A stretch of DNA of 48,956 bases from Verrucomicrobiota bacterium (lineage in GTDB: Bacteria > Verrucomicrobiota > Verrucomicrobiia > Methylacidiphilales > JBCCWR01), in the NCBI GenBank assembly GCA_039193385.1, contig JBCCWR010000004.1:1-48956 (forward strand). The letters run 5' to 3'. The notes beneath the pieces are model-generated. The model searched no databases and was not told the DNA's origin. It saw only the letters and a program-made list of their open reading frames with translations. Shown here in pieces: positions 2 to 8,512 of the stretch. A program made the position numbers and the translations under genes. Every line of letters begins with the position of its first letter. Position 1 is the stretch's first letter.

Positions 2-538
2 TTTTTCTGGATTTGTGCTATCGGATTGCTAGGCGCGGCTATAGCCGTCACAGTAAATAGAAATCCATTTGGTTCAGCAATAGCTTTGGTATGCGTGTTC
101 TTTTTTCAAGCCTTACTTTTTCTTTCTTTAGAATCGGTGGTTCTATTTGTGGTGCAGATGATCATCTATGTAGGTGTGGTCATGGTTCTGTTTCTTTTTA
201 TTATCAGGCTTTTGGATATTAAAGGAGAGTCAAAGCGAGTAGTGCCTTGGTTTAAGATTGGAGCTGTAACATTCTTATCTTTAGTCCTGGGTAATTTTTT
301 CATTCAAGCAATACATAGTTTAGATAGAGGAAGTGAAAGGCTTACCTGGGCTAATGAAGCGAATAAACAAGTTGCCATGCCAGGCACTATAGAGATGGGC
401 AAAGAACTCTTTTCTAATTATCTACTACCTTTCGAGGCGACTCTAGTGCTGTTATTAATGGTAATAGTAGGAGTGCTTTTACTGATCCGCAGATATGATC
501 TTTCCCCGAGTGACTCTGAAAGTTCAGACAAGAAATAG
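2..538 (+). CDS. nuoJ: NADH-quinone oxidoreductase subunit J (5'-truncated by window edge)
   Basis: Frame is open from nt 2 (FFWICAIGLLG...). Motifs RNPFGSAIAL, IYVGVVMVLFLF (YAGAIMVLF family) and LFSNYLLPFE; directly upstream of nuoK. Confidence 0.93.
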   Translation, partial: FFWICAIGLLGAAIAVTVNRNPFGSAIALVCVFFFQALLFLSLESVVLFVVQMIIYVGVVMVLFLFIIRLLDIKGESKRVVPWFKIGAVTFLSLVLGNFFIQAIHSLDRGSERLTWANEANKQVAMPGTIEMGKELFSNYLLPFEATLVLLLMVIVGVLLLIRRYDLSPSDSESSDKK

Positions 539-544
539 TGTTAC

Positions 545-868
545 ATGGCATATTTTACAGATATTACACTAAATCATTACGTCGCGTTGAGTGGTATGCT
601 ATTTATGCTAGGCCTGGTAGCAGTCATTACGCGAAAAAATAGCATTATTATTCTTATGGGACTCGCAATGATGTTGAATGCAGCGAATCTTGCTCTGGTA
701 GCATTTGCTAGATTTCATCCTGAAGGCGCATTGAATGCTCATATGATGGTGTTCTTTATTATCACTGTAGCTGCGGCTGAGGTAGCTGTAGGGTTAGCCT
801 TGATTGTTGCTCTATTTCGCAAACGTCAAACTGTTGATGTAACGCAACTAACCGAATTAAAATTTTAA
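545..868 (+). CDS. nuoK: NADH-quinone oxidoreductase subunit K
   Basis: 107 aa, three hydrophobic segments, RKN..MLNAANL and TVAAAEVAVGLAL motifs; position in the nuo operon. Confidence 0.96.
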   Translation: MAYFTDITLNHYVALSGMLFMLGLVAVITRKNSIIILMGLAMMLNAANLALVAFARFHPEGALNAHMMVFFIITVAAAEVAVGLALIVALFRKRQTVDVTQLTELKF

Positions 869-874
869 GGCACT

Positions 875-2692
875 ATGAATTGGTTGATATTAGGTGCTCC
901 TTTAGTTTCTGCAGTTTTAATAACCATAGGGTTATACAAAAACAAAATTGCCTCAGTAAGTGTATCAATCGCTGCCTGTGCTGTAAGTTTTACATCTGCA
1001 CTGATTGTTTTCTTTTCCGGTGAATATTGGGGCTATAGTGAATATCTCTGGTTTCAAGTCGGTGACTTGAAAGTGGAAATAGGCGCTATGCATGATGATC
1101 TGGCGCGTCTGATGTTATTGATGGCAACAGGAGTAGCACTACTCATTCATATTTTTGCCTATGGTTATATGAAAGAAGATGAAGCTCTCTCTCGTTTCTT
1201 CGCCAAGCTTTCCTTATTCACGTTTTCCGTGCTGGGAATTGTCATGGCTAATAATCTAGTCATGATGTTTATTTTTTGGGTGCTTGTGGGCTTAAGTTCT
1301 TATTTGCTCATTGGCTTCTGGTTTCAGCGTCCAGCCGCAGCAGAAGCTTCTAAGAAAGTCTTTATCATTAACCGTCTGGGTGATTTTGGTTTCTTGCTAG
1401 GTATTTTAGGGGTCTGGATGCTTTGGGATTCAATTGATTTTCTAACGCTTAAATCTGCCATAAAAACTAACCCGAATTCTACGGACACTTTTGGACTGAC
1501 GTTAGTGGCCATTGGTCTTTTTTGTGGATGTGTCAGTAAGTCTGCCCAGTTTCCTCTCCATATTTGGCTTCCTGACGCAACGGAAGGCCCGACTCCAGTT
1601 TCTGCGCTTATCCATGCCGCTACAATGGTAGTTGCTGGCGTGTATATGTTATGCCGCGTGTTCTTTATTCTAGAGCTGAGTGAAAATGCACTCCTAGTCA
1701 TTGCCATCGTCGGCACAGTTACTGCATTAGGCGCTGCTTTAATCGCTCTGCAACAAAATGACATCAAACGTATTCTTGCCTATTCGACTTTATCCCAGCT
1801 TGGTTACATGGTTGCGGCTGTTGGAATGGCAGCTAGTGCGGAAGCTATGTTTCATCTGACAACACATGCTTTCTATATGGCTCTTTTATTTCTCGGAGCA
1901 GGTTCTGTGATCTATGGTATTCATCATGAGCAGGACATTTGGAAAATGGGGGGGCTATGCAAAAAAATGCCTATAACCTTCTGGACATTTGTTGTGGCGA
2001 CGCTCGCGTTAACTGGGTTTCCAGGATTAGCTGGATTCTATAGTAAAGAAGCGATACTTAGTTCAGCTTATCATGACCATCCCATTATATTTGGGGTGCT
2101 TCTTTTCACAGCAGGTCTGACAGCTTTTTACATGACACGTTTAGTTGTTGTCGCCTTTTTGGGTAAGGAGAAAAGTGGTGTTGTTTCTCATGCTCGTGAA
2201 TCTTCTTGGTATATGACGATCCCCTTAATCATTTTAAGCATTTTTTCTGTTATTGGAGGATGGAGTATCAACCATTTGGGTCTGGAAGATTTTCTTCATG
2301 TTCACCAGCATGAAGAAGGTACAATAAGCGTAATAGCGATGTTGATTGGAGTATTTGTTATCGGAACGGTGCTCGCCTTTGTTCTTTATAATAACCGTGA
2401 GTCTGAACCTTTTGACATTCCAATGGTTAGTCCATTATTCAAAAATAAATTTTATAGTGATGAAATTTATAAACTGACTTTTGTCAAAGGTCATCAGATG
2501 TTGGCTACAGGGTTAAGCTGGTTTGATCGTTGGATTATTGATGGGTTGATTGTTCGTGGTTTGTCAGTCATTAGCAATATAAGCGGAGAAGCGTTACGTC
2601 TTATTCAAGGCGGTAATCTTCAGGCTTACATTATTTTCTTTGTTTTCGGAGTGGCTTTTATCGGATTTTTCTTATTTAGATACGCGCTGTAA
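875..2692 (+). CDS. nuoL: NADH-quinone oxidoreductase subunit L
   Basis: KSAQFPLHIWLPD..EGPTPVSALIHAATMV, DIKRILAYSTLSQLGYM, GFYSKE, and C-terminal amphipathic helix ending LRLIQGGNLQAY. Confidence 0.97.
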   Translation: MNWLILGAPLVSAVLITIGLYKNKIASVSVSIAACAVSFTSALIVFFSGEYWGYSEYLWFQVGDLKVEIGAMHDDLARLMLLMATGVALLIHIFAYGYMKEDEALSRFFAKLSLFTFSVLGIVMANNLVMMFIFWVLVGLSSYLLIGFWFQRPAAAEASKKVFIINRLGDFGFLLGILGVWMLWDSIDFLTLKSAIKTNPNSTDTFGLTLVAIGLFCGCVSKSAQFPLHIWLPDATEGPTPVSALIHAATMVVAGVYMLCRVFFILELSENALLVIAIVGTVTALGAALIALQQNDIKRILAYSTLSQLGYMVAAVGMAASAEAMFHLTTHAFYMALLFLGAGSVIYGIHHEQDIWKMGGLCKKMPITFWTFVVATLALTGFPGLAGFYSKEAILSSAYHDHPIIFGVLLFTAGLTAFYMTRLVVVAFLGKEKSGVVSHARESSWYMTIPLIILSIFSVIGGWSINHLGLEDFLHVHQHEEGTISVIAMLIGVFVIGTVLAFVLYNNRESEPFDIPMVSPLFKNKFYSDEIYKLTFVKGHQMLATGLSWFDRWIIDGLIVRGLSVISNISGEALRLIQGGNLQAYIIFFVFGVAFIGFFLFRYAL

Positions 2693-2694
2693 CC

Positions 2695-4173
2695 ATGAAT
2701 TTTATGCTGCAATTTTTATTGATCACACCAGTTTTGGCCTGTCTGGCTATTATTATAGGAGCGCCTGCGAAGCGAACGGCTCTGTTTTCTTCACTGATTG
2801 GATTAATAAGCACGGTTGCACTAGCCTGGGGCTTTGATGCGGAAGCTGAGGCGTTTCAATTTATCACTAAGATACCTGTTGCGGAACACCAAGATCTATT
2901 CACTCTTCATTTTCACTTAGGAATTGATGGTATGAGCTTGGCAATGTTGTTGCTCACATCTGTAGTCACCTTGTCAGCTGTTTGTATTTCTCCAGAAGAT
3001 ATAAAACGCGGAAAATTATTTTATATATGTTTGCTGTTGGTCAGTCTGGGAGCTGTTGGAGCATTTGTTTCACTTGATTTGTTTTTTCTATATGCTTTTC
3101 ATGCAGTTGCTCTTATTCCTACATTTTTGCTTATTGGAATCTGGGGAACGCATGATCGTAAATTTGCCGCGACGCAAATGACCATTTATCTGATGGCAGG
3201 GAGTTTGGTGCTGTTGGCGGGCTTATTGGCCTTTTACTTTTATTTGCCTGAGCCGACTTTTGATTTGGTAGAAATTCAAGAGATGCTTCAAGGAGATTCC
3301 TTCACGGCAGAGCAACAAAGTGTAATTTATCCATTGCTGCTAATTGGTTTTGGTATTCTAATAGCACTTTTTCCATTTCATAGCTGGGCTCCAAGAGGAT
3401 ATGCTACTTCTCCAGCAGCATGCGTTATGCTTCATGCTGGTGTGTTAAAACAATTTGGTTTTTATGGGTTAATTCGACTTGCCGTGCCGTACTTGCCGGA
3501 CGGGATTGCACAATATCTACCACTGTTGCTTGTGCTTTTGTTATGTAACTTGATTTATATTGGGTTTCTTACATTGACACAGAAAGATCTCAATCTGATG
3601 CTTGCTTTTTCTAGTGTCATGCATATGGGCTACCTCTTCTTGGGATTAGCAGGAATGAATGCCGTTAGTATTAACGGCATGGTTTTATTAATGGTCGCTC
3701 ATGGTTTAAGCACAGCACTACTTTTTGGACTAGCTGCAGAAATTCGCGAGCGTGCCGGCACCTTACATTTTGCAGAGCTAGGCGGCATGGCAAGTAAGGC
3801 TCCATGGTTAGCCTTTTTGTTTATTGCAGGTGGCATGGCATCAATGGGCTTGCCTGGATTAGGAAACTTTGCCGGTGAGGTAATGATTTATTTTGGAGCA
3901 TGGAAAGGTGCTGAACACCACCCCATACTTTATATTGTTATAATACTAGCAGCTTGGGGATTGGTGATCTCAGCAATTTATATGCTGCGTGCAATAAAGA
4001 CAGTTTGTTATGGTTCGCTATCGGATTCATTGAGAGAGACAGAAGATTTCAAAGATTTTGCACAAGCGTTTCCATTTTTATTGTTACTAGCTGGTTTATT
4101 GCTGACTGGTTTATGTCCATGGATTCTTTCGAACTGGATGAAACCGGTTTTAGTAGGTCTAGGTTTAGAATAA
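2695..4173 (+). CDS. nuoM: NADH-quinone oxidoreductase subunit M
   Basis: LGIDGMS, LIPTFLLIGIWG, PFHSWAP, SSVMHMGY, AHGLS, GLPGLGNFAGE; lies between nuoL and nuoN. Confidence 0.96.
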   Translation: MNFMLQFLLITPVLACLAIIIGAPAKRTALFSSLIGLISTVALAWGFDAEAEAFQFITKIPVAEHQDLFTLHFHLGIDGMSLAMLLLTSVVTLSAVCISPEDIKRGKLFYICLLLVSLGAVGAFVSLDLFFLYAFHAVALIPTFLLIGIWGTHDRKFAATQMTIYLMAGSLVLLAGLLAFYFYLPEPTFDLVEIQEMLQGDSFTAEQQSVIYPLLLIGFGILIALFPFHSWAPRGYATSPAACVMLHAGVLKQFGFYGLIRLAVPYLPDGIAQYLPLLLVLLLCNLIYIGFLTLTQKDLNLMLAFSSVMHMGYLFLGLAGMNAVSINGMVLLMVAHGLSTALLFGLAAEIRERAGTLHFAELGGMASKAPWLAFLFIAGGMASMGLPGLGNFAGEVMIYFGAWKGAEHHPILYIVIILAAWGLVISAIYMLRAIKTVCYGSLSDSLRETEDFKDFAQAFPFLLLLAGLLLTGLCPWILSNWMKPVLVGLGLE

Positions 4174-4211
4174 GGATAGTTTGATAGAATAACGTTTTCA
4201 GGAGCCTTCAC

Positions 4212-5666
4212 ATGGAGTTCTTAAAAGAATTATTAAATCTACTCCGGTATCCGGAGTTTGGCATACTTTTGCTAGCGCTATTGCTGCTGGGCTATGAGTC
4301 TTTGCGTAATAAAACAAAATCTTCATGGATGGCCCCTTTTTCTATGGTTGGCGTTGCTGTGATTTTTGCCCTGACATTCTTTTATCCTCTTCAATATGGC
4401 ATGCACTGGGATGGTCTTTATAATTTGGATGCCTTAGCGCTTTTTTTTAAACGCTTTTTCCTTGCTGTAACTTTTGGGGTGTTATGGATGGGGATGGTGT
4501 TTGAAAAAAAGTTGAAATACGGTCGAGATGAATTTTTTGTTATACCTCTTTTTACAACTGTAGGCATGTTGTTGTTATCTTCCGCAGTTGATTTCATACT
4601 CATTTTTGTAGGCTTAGAGCTTGTAACTATTTCATTCTATATTTTAGTTGCTTACCAGAGAGAGAAACAAACTTCACTTGAAGTAGGGGTAAAGTATTTA
4701 ATTATAGGTGCACTTTCAACCGGCTTTATGGTTTATGGCATAGCTTTGTTATTTGGTCTGGTGGGAAGCACAAAACTGGCCGACGTTAATACTTACATAG
4801 CTTACAATGAAGTATCGGCAATGTTACTCTTTTCGTTGTTGTTTCTCATTGTTGGGTTAGGTTTTAAGGTGGCGGCTGTCCCATTTCATGTCTGGTCACC
4901 TGATGTTTATGAGGGAGCTCCAACACCTGTTACCGCTTTCTTGGCCACCGCCTCAAAAGCTGCTGGGTTCCTTGTTCTACTTAGGTTGTTCAAATTTGAT
5001 GCGTTTGGAGTGGATAAAGTGCAAGAGTCTGTCAGCTTGGTATTTGCTATGGTAGGTTGTTTTACCGTTTTGTTGGGTAATTTTGTTGCAACACCGCAAC
5101 GTAATTTCAAACGTTTGCTAGCTTATTCTAGTATTGGGCATGCAGGGTTTCTTTTGTTGGGACTTAGTACTTTAAGCAATCGAGGTGTTAGCTCAGTTAT
5201 TATCTATTTAGTTGTTTATGCCATTGCCGCTTTGCTGGCATTTTTCATCATCACGCACCTTGCATCTAAAATAGGTGGATATGAAATTTCAAAATTTTCC
5301 GGTCTTTCACAGCGTGAACCTCTTTGTGCAGCCGGTTTGATAATAGCGCTTATTTCTATGGCTGGTATTCCACCATTAGCAGGATTTGTAGGTAAATTCA
5401 GTGTTATGGCCGCATTGTGGGAAAATGGTAATATATTATGTTTAGCGGTTGCGATTATTGGGGCCGTGATTGGGTTAGGCTATTACTTAAGAGTGATATC
5501 TGTTCTCTTTTGGAATGATCCTTTACCTGAAACAGAGAAGCTGGAAATACCTTTAGCCTCACAAGCAGTTGTGGTTGTCTTACTTGTGAGCTTGGTAGTT
5601 CTCGGAATTTGGCAAACACCTTTAAGTCAATTATTGGCCTGGATCACCGGTCCCACGCCGAGTTGA
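4212..5666 (+). CDS. nuoN: NADH-quinone oxidoreductase subunit N
   Basis: GLELVT, GFKVAAVPFHVWSPDVYEGAPTP, ASKAAG, KRLLAYSSIGHAG, AGIPPLAGFVGKF, YYLRVI. Confidence 0.97.
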   Translation: MEFLKELLNLLRYPEFGILLLALLLLGYESLRNKTKSSWMAPFSMVGVAVIFALTFFYPLQYGMHWDGLYNLDALALFFKRFFLAVTFGVLWMGMVFEKKLKYGRDEFFVIPLFTTVGMLLLSSAVDFILIFVGLELVTISFYILVAYQREKQTSLEVGVKYLIIGALSTGFMVYGIALLFGLVGSTKLADVNTYIAYNEVSAMLLFSLLFLIVGLGFKVAAVPFHVWSPDVYEGAPTPVTAFLATASKAAGFLVLLRLFKFDAFGVDKVQESVSLVFAMVGCFTVLLGNFVATPQRNFKRLLAYSSIGHAGFLLLGLSTLSNRGVSSVIIYLVVYAIAALLAFFIITHLASKIGGYEISKFSGLSQREPLCAAGLIIALISMAGIPPLAGFVGKFSVMAALWENGNILCLAVAIIGAVIGLGYYLRVISVLFWNDPLPETEKLEIPLASQAVVVVLLVSLVVLGIWQTPLSQLLAWITGPTPS

Positions 5667-5683: not shown

Positions 5684-5711
5684 TTGCCATAAATTAATAT
5701 AGCTGCATAAT
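5684..5711 (+). promoter_or_regulatory. Putative sigma70 promoter for iscA (probably leaderless transcript)
   Basis: TTGCCA (5684-5689), 16 nt spacer, CATAAT (5706-5711), then 6 nt to the ATG at 5718; no Shine-Dalgarno. Confidence 0.45.
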
Positions 5712-5717
5712 AGTGTT

Positions 5718-6086
5718 ATGTCTTCGATGCATGAGGTGAAATACAAAGTAGGTAATGAAAAGCTGGTCAAACTTACAGAACCGGCAGCGGATCAGTTGGC
5801 ATCTTTGCTAAAGAGGCAAAATCGTGATCATGGCGCTTTGCGTGTGGCTGTTGTTGGAGGCGGATGCTCTGGGTTACAGTATAAAATGGATCTGGTAGAT
5901 GGGCCGCGCGATAAAGATATTATGGTAGAATCCCGTGCTGTACGAATTGTTGTTGACCCCAAGAGTGCTTTGTTTGTAAGTGGTTCTCAGGTGGACTTTA
6001 GCAAAGATCTCCAAAAAGGTGGTTTCAAGGTGACGAACCCGAATGCGGTAGCACATTGTTCCTGTGGTGAGAGTTTTAGCGCGTAG
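5718..6086 (+). CDS. iscA: A-type Fe-S carrier, IscA/HesB family
   Basis: LRVAVVGGGCSGLQY and NPNA..CSCGESF motifs with all three Cys. Confidence 0.95.
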   Translation: MSSMHEVKYKVGNEKLVKLTEPAADQLASLLKRQNRDHGALRVAVVGGGCSGLQYKMDLVDGPRDKDIMVESRAVRIVVDPKSALFVSGSQVDFSKDLQKGGFKVTNPNAVAHCSCGESFSA

Positions 6087-6094
6087 TTTGTCAG

Positions 6095-6670
6095 GTGAAC
6101 GTAATGAATGCTTTTAAGATTCTTGAAGTGACTCCTTCACCTATTGTTGATTTTGAAGAATTAAAAACATCCTTCCATAGACTCAGCGAGAAATTGCGAA
6201 GTAATCATACGGATGGGGATGTGGCGGAACTCAATCAAGCTTATGAGTTATTACAGAACAGGCCGAATCGTTTGAAAGCGCTCTTAGCAATAAATGGGGT
6301 ATCAGAAAATCAATTAACGGGGGCTAAAAAAGTTCCAGAACCAATGGCGGATTTATGTATGTTGATCGGTGGTATATGGCATGATGTGGATCTGTTTCTT
6401 AAAGATGCTGAAAATTATACTAATTTAGAGAGAGCGCTTGCTGCAACAAAGGCCTTGGATTTGCTTGATAAGTTACAAGACCTGCAACAGAAGTTAATGA
6501 TAAAGTCGACAGAGATGCATAAACAACTGGAAACTCTCAATGTAAAATGGAAAGAAGTTGATGCTGTCCTACTTAATGAGCTGAAAAATTTTTATCTTGA
6601 AGATGTTTATTTGAGCAAGTGGATGGAGCAGCTTGATGAACGTATGTTTCGTTTATCACAGATGGTTTAG
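6095..6670 (+). CDS. HscB-like J-domain co-chaperone (HPD motif absent); alternative start ATG 6104
   Basis: N-terminal NAFKILEV..ELKTSFHRLS..ELNQAYELL..RLKALL J-domain pattern, helical C-terminus, located between iscA and an Hsp70. Confidence 0.75.
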   Translation: MNVMNAFKILEVTPSPIVDFEELKTSFHRLSEKLRSNHTDGDVAELNQAYELLQNRPNRLKALLAINGVSENQLTGAKKVPEPMADLCMLIGGIWHDVDLFLKDAENYTNLERALAATKALDLLDKLQDLQQKLMIKSTEMHKQLETLNVKWKEVDAVLLNELKNFYLEDVYLSKWMEQLDERMFRLSQMV

Positions 6671-6682
6671 AAGTTCTTGATT

Positions 6683-8512
6683 ATGAGTGATGTCATTATC
6701 GGTATAGATTTAGGAACAACGAATTCAGCAGTAGGGGTAGTAGACTGCGGATTTCCAGTTTTAATTCCAGATCATGAAGGACACCGTCTTTTTCCATCCT
6801 TTTATTTCAATCGAAGTCGAGAACAGATCGAAGTGGGCCATGTTGCCAAACGTGCAAGAGGTGCCAGACCAGAGCGTGTCGTTTACTCAGCCAAACGCTT
6901 CATGGGGCGTGTATTTGGAGATTTGAGAACGGAAGACGTAGAGCTTAGCTACCCAGTGGAATGCGGAGATAAGGGTGAAATTATTTTTGACTTGGGTGAA
7001 GCACGTATTGGGGCAGAAGATGTTTCTGCCGCTATTTTATCTAAACTTAAGAAACAAGCTGAGGCGTATTTAAACTTAGTAGTAGATAGGGCTGTGATTA
7101 CAGTGCCCGCCTATTTTAATGATGGTCAGCGCAAGGCGACCAAACGTGCTGCAGAGATGGCTGGTTTAAAAGTAGAGCGTATTATCAATGAGCCCACAGC
7201 AGCAGCTTTAGCTTATGGTTTAGGTAGAAATGAGAGTGATGAAAAATTGAAGATAGCTGTTTATGATTTGGGGGGCGGTACATTCGATATTTCTATTCTT
7301 GAATTAAGTGGTTCTGTTTTTGAGGTATTAGCAACAAATGGTAATACCAAACTTGGTGGAGATGATATTGATTTGGCTTTAAGAGATTATCTCTGTCTCA
7401 AGATTGAAGAAAGTCTGGGAGATAAGTTAACAGATTCTGAAAAGGCCCTTGTTCTAGAAAATGCGGAACGTCTTAAATGTCTCTTATCAAATGAACATGA
7501 AGTAGAACTATCTCTGCCATTTTTACGAGATTCTTACAGCTATCAATATACTTTGCGTCGTAGTGAGCTTGATAAGCTGTCAGCAGAAATTTTAGAGAAG
7601 ACGCGTGAACATTGTTATCGAGCTATGCGTGATGCCAAGTTGCGTGTCGATGAAATTGATAAGGTTCTTTTAGTTGGCGGTCAGACACGTATGCCTTTTG
7701 TTCGTGAACTCATTAAAGAAATTTTTGATCAGGAGCCGGATACGTCAATTAATCCTGATGAGGCCGTAGCTGTTGGAGCAACTGTGCAAGCCGGAATTTT
7801 GAGTGGTCAGTTGCAAAATATGGTTTTACTAGATGTAACGCCTCTCTCGCTAGGCATAGAGACGTTCGGTGGTTTAATGAATGTTCTTATTCCTCGTAAC
7901 TCGACAATTCCGACCAAGCAAGGAGAACTATTTACCAATGCAGTGGATGGTCAAAAGCTCATGAAGATTTCTGTGCTTCAGGGGGAACGTGAGTTAGCTA
8001 AGGATAATTGGCGCCTTGGAGAATTAGAGATTCCTTTTAGTGCGGGATCACGCGGTTCTGCTCGAGTTGGAGTACAGTTCGAAATTGATCAAGATGGTAT
8101 TTTACATGTCCTGGCGCGTGACACCACAACTGGTCAGGATGTTAAACTCGAGCTTAAATCAGCTGTCGATGTTAGTGATGATGAAGTTGAAAAGATGGTC
8201 GCGGAGTCTGTGGAACATGCGCTTGATGATATGAAAGCACGGCAATCAGTTGAAGTAACTATGAAGGCGCAAAGGCAAATAGAGGCGGCAATGAAGGCCT
8301 TGGCATTACTTGGGGATGGTTTGACAGAAAATGAGAAAGAGCAAATTCTTCAATTAGTACATAGGCTTCAAGAAGAATTAAAAAAGGATGAACAGACTGT
8401 TTCTGTGATCAAACAGTTACTACTGGAGTTAGAAGAAAGAGCCAAACCAATGGCAGAAAAATTGATGGAACAAGCCCTAGATTTAGCGTTAGAGAAAAAA
8501 GGTGTTCTTTGA
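6683..8512 (+). CDS. hscA: Hsp70 chaperone, HscA-like (DnaK paralog)
   Basis: [60 protein letters not shown]. HscA is inferred from the iscA / J-protein context. Confidence 0.8.

Follow-up and report, generated by a model that had tools for sequence, protein, structure and literature searches.

A probable orphan complex I membrane arm stripped of charged relay residues in a member of the Verrucomicrobiota

Orphan membrane arms of complex I are already known from bee gut bacteria. All 95 Gilliamella genomes carry nuoJKLMN as their only nuo genes, together with ndh, and the study regards the five as possible remnants (PMC11325843). Marine actinomycetes (Salinispora and marine Streptomyces) hold partial NDH-1 sets of another make-up, comprising nuoA, nuoH and nuoJ to nuoN (PMC4018334). 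The subject of this report is a run of nuoJ, nuoK, nuoL, nuoM and nuoN at the start of a 48,956-nucleotide stretch of DNA (the window; forward strand of contig JBCCWR010000004.1, assembly GCA_039193385.1) from a Verrucomicrobiota bacterium of the order Methylacidiphilales. Its genome, G000, derives from a marine metagenome and comprises 2.50 Mb in 227 contigs at 89% completeness. We favour, with moderate confidence, the reading that these genes encode a selected, non-pumping orphan membrane arm that outlasted the loss of the redox and quinone half of the enzyme, NuoA to NuoI. The orphan state is probable in G000 and proven by synteny in G024, a second genome of the order whose arm has lost the same classes of residue. 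This early stage with convergent relay loss is the new part, and the literature searched yielded no account of an orphan complex I arm that has lost charged residues.

The five proteins are clear orthologues, in the same gene order, of the complex I membrane arm (P-module) solved from E. coli (3RKO/7NYH) and T. thermophilus (4HE8); against the arms of those relatives whose enzyme is complete, identity is 45-64% for NuoM and 49-63% for NuoL. Unlike in those enzymes, NuoA to NuoI are missing from the assembly, NuoK E36, NuoL E144 and K342, and NuoM E144 and K265 are replaced, and NuoJ is too diverged for the NuoJ equivalog models. In gene content the closest match is the Gilliamella/Orbaceae bee gut set, which consists of the same five nuo genes (out of 14) without catalytic subunits, beside an ndh/NDH-2; G000 likewise holds only nuoJ to nuoN plus an NDH-2. 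That set belongs to another phylum, whereas in the order of the window the loss is recent enough for sister genomes to retain the whole enzyme. The actinomycete sets share with the window a group of membrane-subunit nuo genes without those of the peripheral arm, and a marine setting, but they include nuoA and nuoH, neither of which was found in G000, whose nuo set is single. Partial NDH-1 sets of the actinobacterial kind accompany a complete operon as an additional copy. Mrp (Mnh/Pha/Sha) antiporters also have homologous antiporter-like subunits that operate without a redox module; the window cluster differs in having no MrpB, MrpE, MrpF or MrpG, its best family matches are to Nuo, and the Mrp models score far under their cut-offs.

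The five genes lie on one strand with no internal stop, and their features, with the substituted codons in E. coli numbering, are as follows.

2 to 538, plus strand: nuoJ; Pfam PF00499 at 90.1 bits against a cut-off of 33.2; 5' end open at the contig edge.
206 to 208, plus strand: Arg codon of NuoJ at the position of E. coli M72 in transmembrane helix 3 (TM3); Met in 34/34 other sequences.
545 to 868, plus strand: nuoK, intact; NCBIfam NF004320 at 107.7 bits against 57; HMMER matches to solved NuoK/Nqo11 chains.
665 to 667, plus strand: NuoK E36 to A, codon GCA.
875 to 2692, plus strand: nuoL, intact; NF005141 at 629.7 bits against 556 and TIGR01974 at 600.9 against 407.5.
1280 to 1282, plus strand: NuoL E144 to V, codon GTG.
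1877 to 1879, plus strand: NuoL K342 to M, codon ATG.
2695 to 4173, plus strand: nuoM, intact; TIGR01972 at 364.1 bits against 263.8; HMMER matches to solved NuoM/NdhD chains.
3103 to 3105, plus strand: NuoM E144 to A, codon GCA.
3358 to 3360, plus strand: NuoM K234 to L, codon CTA; phylum-wide, not peculiar to G000.
3451 to 3453, plus strand: NuoM K265 to Q, codon CAA, with K264 retained alongside.
4212 to 5666, plus strand: nuoN, intact, all key residues canonical; TIGR01770 at 388.2 bits against 332.6.

All five are thus recognisable by family models, NuoK, NuoL, NuoM and NuoN through NCBIfam and NuoJ only through Pfam PF00499. NuoJ is strongly diverged, reaching none of the NCBIfam NuoJ equivalog cut-offs (at best 75.4 against 154), and judged against NuoJ of the sister genome G001, a congener, it lacks about its first four codons at the contig edge. 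An earlier note, written from the sequence alone, had described five full-length reading frames; this stands for nuoK to nuoN and not for nuoJ, which the window edge cuts. The six codons it named are exact and in frame, and five of them are, as it saw, one base away from the codon of the charged residue. Residues were placed by HMMER alignments to solved complex I chains, in which NuoL residues 3-601 align to a solved NdhF chain and hence its C-terminal region to the end, and by MAFFT alignments to the E. coli K-12 Nuo proteins (NC_000913).

These alignments show a relay broken in NuoL (the TM5 Glu and K342), NuoM (the TM5 Glu) and NuoK (E36), a remodelled NuoJ and an untouched NuoN. Five of the nine phylum-conserved axis residues of NuoK, NuoL and NuoM are replaced, leaving the relay intact in NuoN only, which retains E133, E154, K217, H224, K247, H305 and K395; both alignments bear out the four of these (E133, K217, K247 and K395) that had been claimed before. 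Also retained are NuoK E72, NuoL D178, K229, H334, H338 and K399, and NuoM K264, H322, H348 and E407. Could a neighbouring charge stand in for those lost? Within four positions of the replaced sites the only charged residues are, in NuoM, K264 next to Q265 and a His that precedes A144. New charges unique to G000 occur at NuoJ R61, NuoL D185, NuoL E323 and NuoM D454 (NuoN D263 is common to G001), and in the alignments none of them puts a Glu or Lys back at a lost site or next to one.

The codons recur in public contigs. Those of run X1 are identical to the window over 35-1404, 1449-3033 and 3267-4347, and a 314-base piece (2946-3259) has no listed difference at 3103, which leaves all six codons unchanged; The sample of X1 is possibly the source of the genome, and rare variants are hidden in contigs. 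Run X2, a second sample with a close variant and nearby single-nucleotide differences, covers 599-762 and 1729-1980, where the codons at 665 and 1877 are listed without change.

In X1, short stretches of nuoJ and nuoL are also matched by contigs from other organisms, which run on from window positions 178 and 1280. The continuation at 1280 carries the canonical Glu codon, which points to relatives with a normal NuoL in the same habitat.

How unusual are these changes? NuoK E36 is Glu in 28/28 relatives of the order and in 70/70 Verrucomicrobiota loci. For NuoL, E144 is conserved in 28/29 order relatives (Gly in G024) and 71/71 phylum loci, K342 in 28/29 (Asn in G024) and K399, which G000 keeps, in 28/29. 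NuoM E144 is Glu in 27/29 (Gly in G024, Asp in G036) and in 80/80 phylum loci, and K265 is Lys in 28/29, the exception being Gln in G012. The 80 phylum loci, whose record titles include Methylacidiphilaceae, Akkermansia, Chthoniobacter, Terrimicrobiaceae and Puniceicoccaceae, are canonical wherever the gene is covered (NuoM 80/80, NuoL 71/71, NuoK 70/70, NuoN 71/71), as are 119/119 of the other best database matches to NuoL. NuoM position 234 is Leu in 29/29 order relatives and 80/80 Verrucomicrobiota loci, so that K234L, judged from these alignments, is a phylum trait and the only one of the six changes that is ordinary across the phylum. The effect of K265Q is softened because K264 adjoins it, and the same Gln occurs in G012, a genome with NuoD and NuoH. 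NuoK E36A, NuoL E144V, NuoL K342M and NuoM E144A appear essentially unique to G000, and apart from it only G024 is altered at both E144 sites (NuoL and NuoM) and at NuoL K342. The stripped arm is known from one genome per lineage, the X2 sample carrying the close variant of G000.

The phylum has a NuoM peculiarity of its own. Its NuoM (29/29 and 80/80) lacks the TM7 lysine and has a Lys-Lys pair at 264/265 (window 3448-3453), a His replaces the Trp before E144, the motif after TM7 is altered, and the axis pattern reads E-L-K-K-H-H-E in all 80 loci; the lysine partner of NuoM E144 thus seems to have been relocated throughout the phylum. In G012, NuoM has K265Q, H348Y and changes at 12/83 otherwise invariant columns, and is fast-evolving within an apparently complete enzyme.

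The remainder of the enzyme was not found. With E. coli queries, tblastn returned only NuoK, NuoL, NuoM and NuoN in G000, and no match for NuoA, NuoB, NuoCD, NuoE, NuoF, NuoG, NuoH or NuoI. The Pfam models for NuoD (PF00346), NuoH (PF00146) and NuoB (PF01058) have no match in this 89% complete assembly, and the reading frames of the nuoB-H region of G001 (in which B, D, E, F, G and H were identified by E. coli matches) together with G001 NuoI gave zero matches. The quinone module (NuoB, NuoC/D, NuoI), NuoH, NuoA and the NADH-oxidising module (NuoE, NuoF, NuoG) are thus all missing as assembled, which makes the whole low-stoichiometry or non-pumping complex I that the earlier note proposed unlikely. 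Some forms of complex I have no NADH-oxidising module, so the lack of NuoE, NuoF and NuoG weighs less. Relatives hold their nuo genes at two loci, nuoA-H and nuoI-N, the latter followed by an iscA-like gene, hscB and hscA (G001 L066/L081, G005 L068/L082). The gene that abuts nuoH in G001 maps to C40:4265-5029 of G000, and unrelated genes follow there for 12.8 kb, among them ones that appear sufE-like, rpoD-like and dnaG-like from their translations. Upstream of nuoJ, the first 40 bases of the window matched nothing among metagenome contigs, and the Logan contig ends at window base 35.

Nor did a second copy or a replacement turn up. No second nuo operon was found in G000, the sole other match to Proton_antipo_M (PF00361) being MrpD on contig C30, within an Mrp operon (L003 1-3809; end of MrpA or B, then C, D, E, F and G by order and size) whose MrpD has canonical Glu and Lys motifs; this disposes of the suggestion of a repurposed second copy, since the window holds the only nuoL/M/N set. 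The Pfam families of NuoB, NuoD and NuoH also cover group-4-hydrogenase-type enzymes, and because all three lack a match a complex-I-like replacement of that type is ruled out. A search for other NADH dehydrogenases gave a mixed return: an NDH-2 homologue with an NDH2_C domain is present in G000, and no NqrA of Na+-NQR was matched in G000, G001, G003, G005 or G024. G000 also has two haem-copper oxidase genes and a cytochrome bd fragment.

Some smaller features of these loci may be recorded here. NuoG is short (about 565-572 amino acids) in G001 and G005. A 94-amino-acid reading frame without Pfam match lies between nuoD and nuoE of G001 (L081 12107-12388), and C76:561-755 of G000 is 62% identical to it over 65 residues, although the surrounding nuo genes are gone.

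The independent case comes from G024, a genome of another family (94% complete, 30 contigs) for which G005 is the congener used for synteny. NuoB, NuoD and NuoH were not found in it. The flanks of nuoA-H are collinear between the two genomes, with six genes to one side and three to the other; they stand about 860 bp apart in G024 and enclose 8.36 kb holding nuoA-H in G005; nuoI is likewise deleted, between nuoJ and a conserved 855-amino-acid gene. G024 therefore carries an orphan nuoJKLMN arm. Its NuoL has lost E144 (G), K342 (N), K399 (Q) and E400 (Q), its NuoM E144 (G), K264 (N) and H322 (Q), and NuoK E72 has become K, with all seven key residues of NuoN kept. The NuoJ position that is M72 in E. 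coli turned basic twice, to Arg in G000 and to Lys in G024, against Met in 34/34 others. The same residue classes were lost independently in G000 and G024. At the place of G005 nuoI, G024 has a DUF1287 gene on the opposite strand (L067 14607-15242).

Surveys for further cases covered 104 genomes of the order and 401 of the class, with NuoD present in 94/104 and 391/401, and no further stripped arm was found in either. Thirty order genomes with NuoL were examined, and the two charge-stripped ones are both among the three without NuoD, against 0/27 of those with NuoD. As orphan cases G043, G069 and G079 were set aside as fragmentary, and G057 as lacking a NuoL match; G130 and G138, complete 0.9-Mb genomes of the class, have neither NuoD nor an antiporter-like gene, and G440 has only 942-amino-acid and 525-amino-acid PF00361 genes, apparently Mrp-like. 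G331 (nuoEF-G-H-I-N), G391 and G003 (both nuoI-N) were rejected for their canonical arms; a gap in the assembly or a very recent loss is the best reading of them. A 662-amino-acid reading frame of G331 (L175 1105-3093) matches E. coli NuoE and NuoF and is apparently a fused nuoEF. In family f8, G008 has no NuoD, NuoH, NuoL or NuoM match, and G017 and G025 lack NuoD, NuoH and NuoL, G017 having weak NuoM-like matches.

Have the stripped arms simply been left to drift? Branch lengths from FastTree (LG+gamma; 36-43 sequences per protein, excluding partial rows and the G005 duplicate) give the following ratios of each orphan genome to its sister, with RpoB and RpoC as controls.

NuoJ: G000/G001 9.1; G024/G005 9.7.
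NuoK: G000/G001 1.4; G024/G005 2.0.
NuoL: G000/G001 1.1; G024/G005 4.0.
NuoM: G000/G001 1.5; G024/G005 3.9.
NuoN: G000/G001 1.4; G024/G005 1.95.
RpoB: G000/G001 0.93; G024/G005 1.40.
RpoC: G000/G001 0.97; G024/G005 0.89.

Conserved columns, on which 90% or more of the other sequences had to agree, are changed at 36/436 in G000 against 17/443 in G001, and at 76/436 in G024 against 7/436 in G005. Early relaxed selection, the alternative that the earlier note had offered, is borne out to this extent, the toll in G000 being about twice that of its sister, but the open frames are at odds with plain decay. Taking the excess change as neutral (4.5% in G000, 15.8% in G024), a substitution simulation on the five genes predicts 4.1 stops in G000, with a probability of none of 0.0075, and 14 in G024, where 0/400 runs ended without one; zero are observed in each. 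These expectations exclude indels, and neither stop nor frameshift is present in either arm, whose conserved residues are for the most part retained.

Change is also unevenly spread. NuoN is the least altered of the five and NuoJ the most: in G024 conserved columns are changed at 11/37 in NuoJ, 38/164 in NuoL and 5/84 in NuoN (chi-square p = 0.002 across the five genes; NuoN against NuoL p = 0.0006). Such differences among the five genes are predicted neither by neutral drift nor by selection against stops alone. Thirteen phylum-conserved axis positions were drawn from literature on the E. coli enzyme (PMC9271201, PMC13073174) and from general background; G000 has lost 5/13 of them compared with 31/423 other conserved columns (Fisher p = 0.0023), and its residue losses appear, by this count, to be aimed at the functional axis.

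Together, these observations are the grounds for the selected orphan arm. NuoA to NuoI would have been lost, NADH oxidation probably passing to the NDH-2-type enzyme; as these subunits are not found, the arm has no redox enzyme to serve. The five proteins would still form a membrane subcomplex, J-K-L-M-N, for which redox-driven pumping should be impossible because it has no redox input. Its buried charges may have been removed either as no longer needed or because an ungated relay would leak protons, and what selection retains would be a structural role or else a residual one with NuoN at its centre. We lean towards a residual role that requires an intact NuoN. The scaffold or repurposed arm of the earlier note thereby survives in altered form, as an arm kept open by selection and as an orphan that is not part of an enzyme.

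Several points weigh against this reading. Enrichment of losses at the axis is marginal in G024 (5/13 against 71/423, p = 0.058). Synonymous divergence (dS) is saturated in both sister pairs (proportion of synonymous differences 0.66-0.83 by Nei-Gojobori), too far for a branch-specific estimate of the ratio of nonsynonymous to synonymous change (dN/dS). NuoK, NuoL, NuoM and NuoN of G000 evolve nearly as slowly as those of G001, which has the whole enzyme, and this fits a working complex I too. The NuoL nearest to the stripped one among 5.8 billion proteins is 62% identical. With an 89% complete genome in 227 contigs and a contig that starts inside nuoJ, nuoA-I could be in unassembled or unbinned DNA, and G003, G331 and G391 have no NuoD match yet canonical arms that include nuoI, so a missing NuoD alone is not proof of loss.

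A more specific version of the orphan arm holds that J-K-L-M-N is an autonomous module kept after complex I had gone, in which stripping of the NuoL and NuoM relay and of the NuoK Glu adaptively plugs an otherwise ungated proton path and leaves a NuoN-centred complex with its own function. We entertain it tentatively, as possible and on present evidence doubtful. A model in which all protons leave through NuoL is discussed in PMC9271201, and if that model applies, the hits in NuoL and in the link from NuoM to NuoL would fall at the places where a proton path would be plugged.

A remnant trapped in slow decay, with no function of its own, is the rival that survives best, although we think it rather improbable. 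Here stops and frameshifts would be harmful in themselves, through truncated polytopic proteins or through polarity on the genes downstream, and the loss of buried charges would be the first visible relaxation. The neighbouring features that matter are these.

5684 to 5711, plus strand: promoter-like site in the gap between nuoN and the iscA-like gene; a 10/12 consensus match, a hint only.
5718 to 8512, plus strand: iscA-like gene, hscB and hscA, directly 3' of nuoN.

The same gene order after nuoN recurs in G001, G003, G005 and G024, so that in all five genomes inspected the isc and hsc genes directly follow nuoI/J-N on the same strand, which speaks for this rival. The excess of changed conserved columns over the sisters in both lineages is also as expected of a remnant, and the Gilliamella study leans the same way in seeing nuoJKLMN as possible products of genome reduction (PMC11325843). 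Polarity or toxicity, however, opposes stops and not missense change, and yet NuoN of G024 is spared relative to NuoL and NuoJ; the NuoL rate in G000 is 1.1 times that of its sister; and the changes in the two lineages are convergent and non-random, hitting the same NuoL and NuoM sites and turning the same NuoJ column to Arg or Lys. The promoter-like site just before iscA argues weakly in the same direction, such sites being no more frequent here than in shuffled sequence.

Could G000 have a complete complex I after all, its nuoA-I merely unassembled, with NuoL and NuoM electrostatically dead and pumping at low stoichiometry through NuoN and the E-channel? We consider this unlikely. The incompleteness of the assembly and the contig that begins in nuoJ leave room for it, as does the second locus of the relatives, where one lost contig could hide eight genes; near-normal constraint on NuoK, NuoL, NuoM and NuoN, a fully canonical NuoN and the three other genomes that have normal arms without a NuoD match also agree with it. 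Against this, the assembly would have to lack nuoA-H and nuoI alike, which are separate loci, and the nuoH-side flank in G000 runs into other genes. Substitutions of this kind occur in just one further genome, G024, where deletion of the two loci is proven, and all 27 order genomes with NuoD are canonical. Loss of NuoK E36, a residue of the E-channel, and a ninefold acceleration of NuoJ are hard to square with working coupling. Conversion of the arm to an Mrp-like secondary cation/proton antiporter run by the membrane potential is more unlikely still, for although NuoL, NuoM and NuoN are homologous to MrpA and MrpD and NuoK to MrpC (NCBIfam secondary matches; PMC13073174), NuoN has the full Glu-Lys-Lys-Lys set, the genome is of marine metagenome origin and the partial NDH-1 sets of marine actinomycetes have been linked to marine adaptation (PMC4018334), two of the three antiporter-like subunits lack residues that Mrp needs, the MrpB, MrpE, MrpF and MrpG partners are absent from the cluster, and C30 already supplies a canonical Mrp operon with its MrpD residues intact.

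If the reading of a selected, non-pumping orphan arm holds, the order offers a natural series from the whole enzyme (G001, G005) through an arm with a few relay residues gone (G000) to one with many gone (G024), which would tell apart the residues that the arm requires to fold and assemble and those that serve proton transfer only. The NuoN relay would then be the part still guarded by selection. NuoJ normally packs against NuoH and NuoA, and NuoJ TM3 and the NuoK glutamates would be the parts that depend on those two subunits. For annotation, the labels "NADH-quinone oxidoreductase subunit L/M/N" do not imply that complex I is present. The series would also make testable a question raised by the Gilliamella set, whether the P-module can exist in its own right, be it as an ion path, as a scaffold that does not leak or in some other capacity.

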